Of a DNA stretch of 64,000 nt, positions 12,001-15,241 are shown one piece after another. Source of the DNA: Escherichia coli (GTDB lineage Bacteria; Pseudomonadota; Gammaproteobacteria; Enterobacterales; Enterobacteriaceae). Position 1 is the stretch's first letter. The number at the start of each line of letters is the position of its first letter. The DNA lies in assembly GCF_050320075.1 (NCBI RefSeq), contig NZ_CP190018.1; one strand, written 5' to 3'. A program made the position numbers.

Positions 12001-15000
12001 GATATGTGTGACACTCGCGACGGCATCAACAATAGTGCTCATGGTTTTCCCTGCCATTGCCACCTCATCCGACCCCAGGTCAATTAACCTGACTGATTCA
12101 CTGATCAAGCCTTCAATCTCTTTCGCCGCCTGAGCGCTGCGGCTTGCGAGTGTCCGTACTTCGCTGGCGACAACGGCAAATCCACGCCCTTGCTCACCCG
12201 CTCGCGCGGCTTCAACGGCAGCATTCAGTGCCAGAATATTCGTCTGGAAAGCAATACTGTTGATGACGGCGGTGATCTCAGAAATTTTCTTCGAACTCGT
12301 GGAGATAGCGCCCATCGTTTTTACTACACCGGAAACCGTCTGCCCGCCATCGCTGGCTTTAATAGAAGCCTCTTGCGCCAGTTTGCTGGCATGATGCGCG
12401 TTATCCGCATTCTGTTTCACCGTCGCAGTAAGTTGCTCCATGCTGGCGGCAGTTTGTTCGATAGCCGCCGCTTGTTCTTCGGTGCGAGATGACAGGTCCG
12501 CATTGCCAGCTGAAATTTCGCTGGTGCCACGATAAATCTCTTCCGCACCCTGTCGAACAGTCCCTACTGTCATCCCCAGTGAATGCTGCATTTGCTGTAA
12601 ATGACGACTTAAGCGACCGATTTCATTACGACCCGCCGGTTCATCATTCATCGTCAGATCGCCACTGGCGATTTTTTCAATCCGTTGTGCGGCATGTTGC
12701 AGTGGACGAATGACGATCCGACGTAGCACTATAAATGTTATCAGCGTCATGACCAGGGCAAGCACAAACGCGCCAATCATGAACATCCCACCCAGGCGGG
12801 TGCGCTGATGGGCCAGTTCCGCCAGTTGGTTGGCTCTGGCGCTACGTATCTTAACGGCTTTGCTCAAAATATCGGTATAAGCATTATCCAGCGGTCGGAT
12901 CTGCTCACTTTCATGATTGATAATCGCTTCAAACATGCCATTTTTGGCATATTTCAACATCGGTTGCATACCCGTGATATAAGCCTGGAAGCGTTGATTT
13001 AATTCAGTGTCGAGGGCTTCATCAGCAGGTGTTTTCACCGACCGATTCTGATAAGCACGATAACCTTGCTGCGACTGTTTAATCTCCGATTCGGCTTGCG
13101 CAATATTTCGCTTCATTGCTTCCATTTCAGCAATACGACTCGCAGCACCAGCCTGAATCATATTGATCCGGGCTGAACGCAAAAAATCTGAACTGTTCGC
13201 TAACCCGGTCCGAATCTCAATCTCCGCAGTAACATCACGCTGATCGCGATCGGCCTGCCAAAGGAAATAGCCGGCCAGGGCTGAACTTAATGCGAATAGA
13301 ACTAAGATACCGCCAAGAATGCAGGCAAATAACGGAACCAGCCTGATGTGATGCAAAAAACCTAATCGCTGTGAGGGAGTTGTATTCATTACCGTTGTCT
13401 CTCTTCCAGGTTTACTCCTGATAGAAAGTCATCGGCACTTGACGGTAATTTCTTACGACCAAAAACCTCTTTGCGTCACATTTTTACAACAATTATGGCA
13501 GAGAAGAATAATGCCATTGGAATGAAGAGAGTAACGAATGATTAAACTGGCTAAACCGAATGACGAAAAATTCTGGAAAACAGCACGCAATTTCGTGAAG
13601 TGATTATTTTCGTCCCTAAGGAAACCTCATAGGATGCCTGCGGGTGCCTGAGACTTTCTGTTTTCAGGCTAACCGGGAATCAGAAAGACGAAGGCCCCGA
13701 CCGATATTTCTATCAACTGTACTGCACCCATTTTGTTGGACGATGAAATGGAATAGCCCCTAATATGTCAAAGCCAAAATACCCTTTTGAAAAGCGCCTT
13801 GAAGTCGTGAATCACTACTTCACAACTGATGATGGTTACAGGATCATCTCGGCACGTTTTGGTGTCCCCCGAACCCAGGTCAGGACATGGGTTGCCCTCT
13901 ATGAAAAACATGGAGAAAAAGGTTTAATTCCCAAACCTAAAGGCGTTAGTGCTGATCCAGAGTTGCGTATTAAGGTCGTGAAAGCTGTGATCGAGCAGCA
14001 CATGTCCCTTAATCAGGCTGCTGCTCACTTTATGCTTGCTGGTAGTGGTTCTGTAGCCAGGTGGCTGAAGGTCTATGAAGAGCGCGGAGAAGCTGGTTTA
14101 CGCGCGCTCAAGATTGGCACCAAAAGAAACATTGCAATATCAGTTGATCCAGAAAAAGCGGCATCAGCATTGGAGCTGTCAAAAGACCGACGCATTGAGG
14201 ATCTTGAAAGGCAAGTTCGATTTCTTGAAACGCGGCTTATGTATCTAAAAAAGCTGAAAGCCTTAGCTCATCCCACGAAAAAGTAAAAGTACTCAACGAG
14301 CTAAGGCAGTTTTATCCTCTTGATGAGCTTCTCAGGGCTGCGGAGATACCGCGCAGTACGTTTTATTACCATCTAAAGGCTCTCAGCAAGCCTGACAAGT
14401 ATGCGGACGTTAAAAAGCGTATTGGTGAGATTTATCACGAGAATAGAGGCCGATACGGATACCGTAGGGTAACGCTGTCTCTTCATCGAGAAGGGAAACA
14501 GATTAACCATAAAGCTGTTCAGCGCCTGATGGGAACCCTCTCACTTAAAGCAGCGATTAAGGTCAAGCGATACCGCTCTTACAGAGGAGAGGTAGGGCAA
14601 ACCGCCCCTAATGTTCTCCAAAGAGATTTCAAGGCTACGCGGCCAAACGAGAAGTGGGTTACCGATGTTACTGAATTTGTAGTCAATGGGCGCAAGCTGT
14701 ATTTGTCTCCAGTAATAGATCTCTTCAACAACGAAGTTATTTCTTACAGCCTTTCGGAAAGACCAGTGATGAACATGGTTGAGAATATGCTCGATCAGGC
14801 ATTCAAAAAGCTTAATCCTCACGAGCATCCTGTTCTGCACTCTGACCAGGGATGGCAGTATCGTATGAGAAGATATCAAAATATCCTTAAAGAACATGGT
14901 ATTAAACAAAGCATGTCCAGAAAAGGCAATTGTCTGGATAATGCTGTGGTGGAGTGTTTCTTTGGAACCTTAAAGTCGGAGTGTTTTTATCTTGATGAGT

Positions 15001-15241
15001 TCAGTAATATAAGCGAACTGAAGGATGCTGTTACGGAATATATTGAATACTACAACAGCAGAAGAATTAGCCTGAAATTAAAAGGTCTGACTCCAATTGA
15101 ATATCGGAATCAGACCTATATGCCTCGTGTTTAACTGTCCAACTTTTTGGGGTCAGTACAAACCGAGGCCAACGAATGAACCAAGCAATTCAGATGTTAG
15201 CCTCTTACCCGCCATCAGGCAAGGAGAAAGGCTATGAAGCG

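Follow-up and report, generated by a model that had tools for sequence, protein, structure and literature searches.

A 64,000-nucleotide (nt) stretch of an Escherichia coli genome (NCBI RefSeq assembly GCF_050320075.1, contig NZ_CP190018.1; here called the window) carries a complete copy of the insertion sequence IS150 within hokB/sokB, a chromosomal type I toxin-antitoxin locus. This copy is a true simple insertion, and the single event severs both the leader of the hokB mRNA and the antisense RNA sokB. We hold with considerable confidence that IS150 arrived by simple transposition into a preferred target in this locus, cutting both RNAs and likely silencing hokB. The insertion as such is an event already known: its site is a documented IS150 hot spot, a point absent from an earlier note on this sequence. 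Added here are the split of sokB at nt 26 and of the leader at nt 76, the match of the site to the laboratory hot spot, together with its frequency in nature, and a candidate target motif with mirror geometry.

A single IS150 insertion severs the hokB leader and sokB

The element spans positions 13718-15160, with the left end TGTACTGCACCC and the right end GGGGTCAGTACA. Its termini are imperfect inverted repeats beginning TGTACTG, and its length (~1443 bp in the IS150 group) and reading frames are those of the group as well, i.e., orfA and orfB overlap, with a -1 frameshift at A AAA AAG and a DDE (rve) transposase. Compared to IS150 of K-12 MG1655, 1439 of 1443 positions are identical, the 4 nt changes including the InsK substitutions S48G and A133V. 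The orfB product matches NCBIfam NF033516 (IS3 family transposase) with 349 bits, rve domains are recorded for proteins identical to the window transposase, and the identical insertion sequence in strain 144 is labeled by the Prokaryotic Genome Annotation Pipeline (PGAP) as an IS150 transposase with programmed frameshift. A 3-bp direct duplication, AAC, stands at both IS150 ends, where the empty site has a single AAC. Without IS150 and one AAC, the window is colinear with K-12 MG1655, from which its flanks differ by 1.4% (280-bp empty-site query), and with strain CFSAN061763, which has an empty site and differs at only 2 of 16,657 flank positions. An assembly artefact can be dismissed because 561 complete genomes share the junction. 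The earlier note had placed a 1443-bp IS150 with an AAC duplication 15 bp before mokB and had described the hokB and mokB frames as intact; its coordinates are correct to the base, and both frames are open.

The features of the locus and of the element are as follows (coordinates in the window, strand, feature):

11749-13389, minus: trg, to the left of the insertion
13630-13635, plus: putative -10 hexamer of the hokB promoter, TAGGAT, read from the sequence
13642-13717, plus: orphaned 5' part of the hokB mRNA leader, 76 nt, Rfam RF01794 positions 1 to ~84, colinear with K-12
from 13642, plus: tac-like 5' end GGGUGCCUGAG, which starts the orphaned leader on the trg side
13684-13717, minus: promoterless 3' remnant of sokB with the loop and 3' arm of its terminator hairpin and the U-rich tail, mapped from K-12 coordinates
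13700-13702, no strand: ACC, the mirror-image target in the opposite arm of the SokB hairpin, vacant in the window, occupied elsewhere with IS150 reversed
13715-13717, no strand: left copy of the target duplication AAC, of which K-12 and CFSAN061763 have one only
13718-15160, plus: IS150, complete, IS3 family, 1443 bp, codirectional with hokB
13765-14286, plus: IS150 orfA (InsJ, 173 aa), identical in sequence to K-12 InsJ
14247-14253, plus: A6G frameshift (slippery) site, within orfA
14283-15134, plus: IS150 orfB (InsK, 283 aa, DDE transposase domain), frame open to 15134
15083-15117, minus: terminator-like 15-bp hairpin with U-rich tail within the right end of IS150, in the direction of transcription from the putative sokB promoter
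15122-15127, plus: IS150-internal GCCTCG, predicted to pair with the mokB Shine-Dalgarno sequence (in a read-out RNA) and with the SokB 5' arm (in an antisense chimera)
15161-15163, no strand: right copy of AAC, adjoining the IS150 right end
15161-15186, minus: the 26 nt of sokB kept at its 5' end (free tail and a portion of the hairpin 5' arm), from mapped K-12 coordinates and the fold
15164-15169, plus: CGAGGC with the mokB Shine-Dalgarno sequence GAGG, directly after the AAC duplication
15176-15343, plus: mokB frame, intact, 55 aa, starting 15 bp past the IS150 end
15194-15222, minus: putative sokB promoter within mokB (-35 TTGCCT at 15222-15217, 17-nt spacer, -10 TAACAT at 15199-15194)
15234-15383, plus: intact toxin gene hokB, 49 aa with H3R against K-12, NF007279 at 100 bits
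15433-15444, plus: CUCAUGGCACCC, a 3' element of fbi type whose complement, the leader 5' end, now lies 1.8 kb away

The 57-nt antisense sokB annotated in K-12 maps to window positions 15186 to 13684, so IS150 cuts it after nt 26. The Rfam model RF01794 is divided at the same place: its positions 1 to ~84 fall on 13642-13717 and ~85 to 157 on 15161-15239, with half-scores of 72.4 and 44.2 bits, compared to 110-120 bits for intact loci and 113.8 bits for the empty site of a close relative. Since RF01794 and sokB are both split, the hokB promoter and the first 76 nt of leader are parted from mokB-hokB, and the reading in the earlier note that hokB is probably uncoupled from its native promoter is supported by the K-12 alignment and the Rfam model. 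The same alignment excludes the arrangement that would have contradicted that claim, with hokB promoter, leader and all of sokB downstream of 15160. The further suggestion that sokB is truncated or displaced holds for truncation only: the gene is split, and its promoter and first 26 nt stay on the hokB side. In sum, the hokB promoter and the first 76 nt of leader, tac-like element included, stay on the trg side, and the hokB side keeps the mokB ribosome-binding site, mokB, hokB, the fbi-like element, the putative sokB promoter and sokB nt 1-26. The locus has the expected Hok toxin frame of ~50 aa overlapped by a mok frame and lacks a continuous hok/sok leader, i.e., it is a disrupted member of its family. 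The sokB promoter hexamers were read from the sequence relative to the K-12 sokB 5' end, and this putative promoter scores under the threshold of the consensus scan.

Within the two RNAs, the AAC target corresponds to nt 74-76 of the hokB leader, directly upstream of the mokB Shine-Dalgarno sequence. In the predicted fold of SokB reconstructed from the empty site, 12 nt at the 5' end stay unpaired and are followed by a terminator hairpin of 14 bp, GGCCUCGGUUGAUA-GAAA-UAUCGGUCGGGGCC; the IS150 insertion point is in the 5' arm of this hairpin. In the minimum-free-energy fold predicted for the reconstructed empty-site mRNA, nt 1-12 pair with CUCAUGGCACCC at the 3' end; in the window, the tac-like and fbi-like elements are on opposite sides of IS150.

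The Rfam model bears on annotation in its own right. RF01794 bears the name of the sok antitoxin; its match is on the hokB leader strand and not on that of sokB, and on 13642-13794 it reports a "full-length" match, assembled from half a leader and the IS150 left end, that with 72.4 bits is still above the gathering score of 59 bits. Automatic annotation would therefore call the broken locus intact: hokB is annotated as an intact toxin in identical genomes and the "sok" match passes its threshold, though the locus is broken and sokB lies in two pieces.

Two neighboring features were noted in passing. The small RNA RydC is matched at full length at 15799-15862 on the plus strand (92.5 bits), between ydcA and cybB as in K-12. 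A gapC-type glyceraldehyde-3-phosphate dehydrogenase gene (16592-17593, plus strand) has an intact frame of 333 aa; K-12 MG1655 and K-12 strain g62 have gapC as a pseudogene.

Recurrence in laboratory lines and natural genomes

By coordinate mapping, window positions 13715-13717 correspond to REL606 1,462,251-253, and the insertion agrees in position, duplication and orientation with the laboratory insertion REL606 1,462,251(-). This trg/mokB hot spot, reportedly also the site of the IS150 mutation in hokB/sokB described by Schneider et al. in 2000 and by Woods et al. in 2006, is named in the literature by mokB and not by hokB. It is documented in evolution and mutation-accumulation lines of E. 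coli B REL606/REL4536 (PMC4301190, PMC3576414, PMC5289635, PMC5419217), and ten IS150 events at the hot spot come from published mutation-accumulation lines. In five populations of the long-term evolution experiment, IS150(-) is recorded at 1,462,251/253/254 by 500-1000 generations, and the same five-population set contains IS150(+) at 1,462,266/268, of which 1,462,266(+) is the mirror target (PMC4301190, supplement). An independent experiment likewise yielded IS150 at 1,462,251 (PMC3576414). Moreover, the identical junction is present in g62, a K-12 laboratory strain whose flanks equal MG1655 at 3759 of 3759 positions and whose IS150 at hokB has the sequence of the single K-12 copy; the g62 insertion thus arose de novo, in another strain background than the E. 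coli B lines.

Natural genomes were surveyed in a set of 5426 complete E. coli genomes:

hokB site uninterrupted: 4490 genomes
exact junction of the window: 561 genomes
mirror site ACC (13700-13702), IS150 reversed: 13 genomes
hokA junction, oriented as at hokB, duplication AAG: 880 genomes
hokC junction, predicted from REL606 16,972(-): 273 genomes (307 places)
IS150, all places: 5955, of which 5179 chromosomal

The homologous sites at hokA, hokB and hokC thus hold ~1765 of the 5179 chromosomal IS150 copies (34%). A change known from laboratory evolution of E. coli B is also among the commonest IS150 positions in natural E. coli. The occupation of the mirror site, which had been predicted from the laboratory data, confirms that prediction. 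Among 23 IS150 places sampled via transposase proteins, 12 are in hok loci and 2 in an ldr locus; the homologous sites at hokA, hokC and hokE are used by IS150 in the same way as the one at hokB.

Uniformity of junction, duplication and orientation in all carriers could also be expected if one ancient insertion had been passed on vertically and by homologous recombination, which is common in E. coli, so that all 561 carriers go back to one event. We regard this as highly improbable. The carriers fall into at least 7 flank identity classes, including ST131 strains, an ST540 strain and K-12 g62, and in the ST131 carriers H92 and H93 the flank haplotype of the hokB insertion is only 98% identical to the window. 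In four sequenced carriers, the IS150 copies are 0-5 nt apart (<=0.3%), while the 1.9-kb flanks are ~1.8% apart, and one flank difference between haplotypes is only 23 bp from the IS150 end; the flanks in the window are ~1.8% from those of the other carrier haplotypes. Repeated independent insertion is favored because near-identical IS150 copies sit in diverged flanks, and because the near-identical strain CFSAN061763 has an empty site; the de novo events at the exact site in E. coli B lines and in g62 speak against a single origin as well.

Beyond E. coli, a contig scan with the left end of IS150 recovered only 7 loci, each truncated close to that end and with unreadable right flanks. In 3 of these 7 exact matches, one in Superficieibacter electus and two in [Erwinia] mediterraneensis, IS150 abuts a hok leader broken at the same position of the Rfam model. 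Exact left ends were also seen on short contigs (L013-L016) assigned to Marinobacter, Alkalicoccobacillus, Collinsella and a Bacillota metagenome-assembled genome; L014 shares its flank with L035, a site near kduI in E. coli, a match that points to contamination of these assemblies with E. coli.

Several individual genomes deserve mention. Strain 144, which carries the hokB insertion and equals the window over the 2401 bp compared at hokB, has two of its three IS150 matches (the hokB copy included) in hok loci, with an insertion in hokA too (hit H217), and an ST131 genome (L020, 2753-4195) has IS150 at the homologous hokA site. The usual duplication is 3 bp; an ldr site beside chaA (L031, L038) has a 4-bp duplication, CCGG, and one hokA copy (L039) a 5-bp duplication, AAGTG. 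In one hokB copy (L040), an IS1 adjoins IS150 on the left and the junction on the right has moved by 1 nt (CAA|CCGAGG), and IS150 at another hokB site (L024) is interrupted by an IS21-type element.

Candidate target motif and site choice

When the sites are normalized such that IS150 is read from its left end to its right end, the sequences around the duplication can be compared (site, left flank, duplication, right flank, as far as given):

hokB, window site: TATC, AAC, CGAGGC
hokB, mirror site: TATC, GGT, CGGGGC
hokC: TATCA, ACC, CGAGGC
hokA: AATCA, AAG, TGAGGC
hokE: TATCAA, CCC, TGGGGC
ldrC/chaA: right flank TGAGGC
pykF, recurrent site in the long-term experiment: right flank TGAGGC
phage-like region: right flank TGAGGC
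site near kduI: right flank CGGGGC
two further non-hok sites: right flank CAGGGC

The hokE site was recovered via the transposase-protein search. Directly after the duplication, the hexamer Y-R-R-G-G-C follows at 6 of 11 non-hok sites (P ~3e-14), and GGC occupies +4 to +6 in 7 of these 11. In hok loci, this hexamer serves as mok Shine-Dalgarno sequence and at the same time forms the base of the Sok hairpin. Judged from these sequences, a shared motif, i.e., the duplication followed by YRRGGC at the right end, probably explains the hot spot. There are two mirror sites with opposite IS150 orientations because the hairpin arms present the hexamer on both strands. The proposed course of events is that IS150, preferring a 3-bp duplication with Y-R-R-G-G-C next to its right end, finds this motif at the base of the Sok hairpin of hok-family loci. 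In the window it entered the 5' arm of the SokB terminator hairpin and duplicated AAC, and the same nucleotide, duplication and orientation have been hit repeatedly in the laboratory and in nature. Hairpin structure, local transcription or tolerance of insertions may contribute to the hot spot in addition.

Two other candidate patterns were rejected. A likeness between the target and the IS150 inverted repeats (GTTGGCC vs. GTTGGAC; GATAGAAAT vs. GATGAAAT) is missing at the hokC, hokA and ldr targets, and ATC in the left flank before the duplication is true of hok and ldr loci and fails at unrelated sites.

The recurrence might instead reflect selection, if IS150 inserted more or less at random and inactivation of hok/sok were advantageous or neutral. 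In one evolution study, which lists IS150 insertions beside hokC, hokE, mokB and ldr genes, the hok/sok and ldr insertions were taken for adaptive losses of redundant function (PMC5419217), ~50% of the long-term populations fixed insertions in the mokB region (PMC4301190, Table 1), and adaptive disruption was proposed by Durrant et al. (bioRxiv 527788). We nevertheless consider selection an unlikely source of the pattern. The ten events in mutation-accumulation lines arose where selection is minimal, one nucleotide and one orientation were used each time, though any disruption would serve, the flank motif is also found at sites outside toxin loci (pykF, phage-like region), and the early long-term alleles were at frequencies of only 1.5-10% (PMC4301190, supplement). 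Selection may still add to the persistence of the insertion.

A more far-reaching idea, which we advance tentatively and rate as slightly less than even, is that IS150 is a specialized resident of hok loci: with the motif on both hairpin arms, these loci would offer two mirror-image sites and a safe haven, since a single insertion there disables toxin mRNA and antitoxin RNA together. If so, this would account for about one third of the chromosomal E. coli copies as well as for the copies at homologous sites in other genera. Neither the motif nor the mirror-site geometry was found stated in the searchable literature, a search outside which key older papers fall.

Consequences for hokB and SokB, and comparison with known insertions

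Downstream of IS150, hokB would be transcriptionally orphaned and essentially silent. The earlier note had raised an outward-reading promoter at the IS150 right end; none was found there in the consensus scan, and a reporter study picked 150-bp IS150 ends as sequences without detectable promoter activity (PMC12095673). mokB should be reachable only by read-through from the transposase transcript, which is weak. In any such read-out transcript, the mok ribosome-binding site would be sequestered, as the predicted fold pairs the mokB Shine-Dalgarno hexamer CGAGGC (15164-15169) with the IS150-internal GCCUCG (15122-15127). On the opposite strand, the retained sokB promoter probably yields a chimeric SokB RNA of ~110 nt, which would keep the 5' recognition tail and end at the IS150 hairpin: it is predicted to have a 13-nt free 5' tail, a new hairpin from the same internal pairing, and then the 15-bp IS150 hairpin at 15117-15083. 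Pairing of this chimera with the start region of mokB could still be possible. The locus is thus most likely silent and the insertion most likely harmless, and being harmless it could persist or spread; a silent, harmless locus fits the frequency of the allele.

The opposite outcome would be that the insertion activates hokB, with IS150 read-out expressing mokB/hokB free of 5' control, a broken SokB no longer repressing, and toxin or persistence going up. IS150 and hokB are indeed codirectional, hokB is intact and so are the Shine-Dalgarno sequence and start codon of mokB, the stretch from orfB to mokB has no plus-strand terminator, and sokE::IS150 has a phenotype. Activation is very unlikely all the same, given that wild-type IS150 ends are reported to lack detectable promoter activity, that the predicted hairpin hides the mokB Shine-Dalgarno sequence in read-out RNA, and that the sokB promoter and 5' recognition tail are kept and joined to a new hairpin and terminator. 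Moreover, ~10% of complete genomes carry the allele, and alleles like it are found at hokA and hokC, which argues against toxicity.

Several points weigh against insertion into a preferred target with silencing of hokB. Clonal lineages inflate the genome counts, including the 561 carriers, and these counts do not stand for numbers of independent events; the motif is based on 16 distinct sites that form a non-random sample. By base composition, YRRGGC is expected ~150 times per genome, and therefore the motif alone cannot explain the frequent targeting of hok loci. The silencing of hokB as well as the existence and activity of the chimeric SokB are predictions only, and low-level read-out into mokB/hokB is possible because IS150 is codirectional and no plus-strand terminator follows orfB. 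Finally, sokE::IS150 has a phenotype in a K-12 derivative (bioRxiv 10.1101/2024.04.20.590381), and such insertions are therefore not necessarily neutral.

The insertion matters for the question whether chromosomal hok/sok loci and hokB-dependent persistence function in a given strain, and for the persistence of an insertion sequence at low cost via harmless targets. A genome-wide association study linked a "single IS150 insertion into trg" with amoxicillin-clavulanate sensitivity (bioRxiv 10.1101/527788). This "trg" insertion may be the hokB/sokB insertion, named after the nearest gene of any size, in which case it would mark a lineage and not be a causal change.

Among known systems, hokA/mokA/sokA::IS150 of K-12 MG1655 resembles the window in that IS150 is in the sok/mok overlap and the toxin frame is intact. 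The parallel to K-12 drawn in the earlier note holds to this extent. An insertion of the K-12 hokA copy at the homologous site was refuted: in contrast to the window, it is in opposite orientation, lacks a duplication (GTA vs. AAC), and is accompanied by a ~40-bp deletion that removes the mokA start region. The canonical hokA insertion has the same orientation as in the window, with AAG and then TGAGGC; 880 other genomes carry it, ST131 and strain 144 among them. IS186 reportedly lies next to hokC and hokE in K-12 and is said to have been read as inactivating by Pedersen and Gerdes in 1999; like IS150 in the window, it would be near but outside a chromosomal hok frame, yet it is of another family and on the 3' side of hok. 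In REL606, an IS4-like element is located ~200 bp past the 3' end of the hokC/mokC frame.

IS911 and IS30 insert beside sequences resembling their own ends, i.e., they are target-directed. IS150 would be comparable insofar as a short adjoining sequence appears to bias position and orientation. The hexamer CGAGGC also occurs inside IS150 (bottom strand), 34-39 nt from the right tip; one such hexamer within 60 nt of an end would arise by chance in ~1 of 5 cases, which makes it only a lead.

The insertion sokE::IS150, known from XL1-Blue derivatives and >400 natural E. coli isolates (bioRxiv 10.1101/2024.04.20.590381), is like the window in disrupting a sok gene, in being present in many natural genomes and in its homologous position, TATCAA-CCC-TGGGGC; it differs in affecting another hok paralogue and in having a measured phenotype. 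The closest counterpart is the laboratory hot spot, which shares with the window the nucleotide, the 3-bp duplication, the orientation to hokB and the element itself, whereas the window insertion stands in the background of a natural isolate and its IS150 is 4 nt off the K-12/B-type copy.

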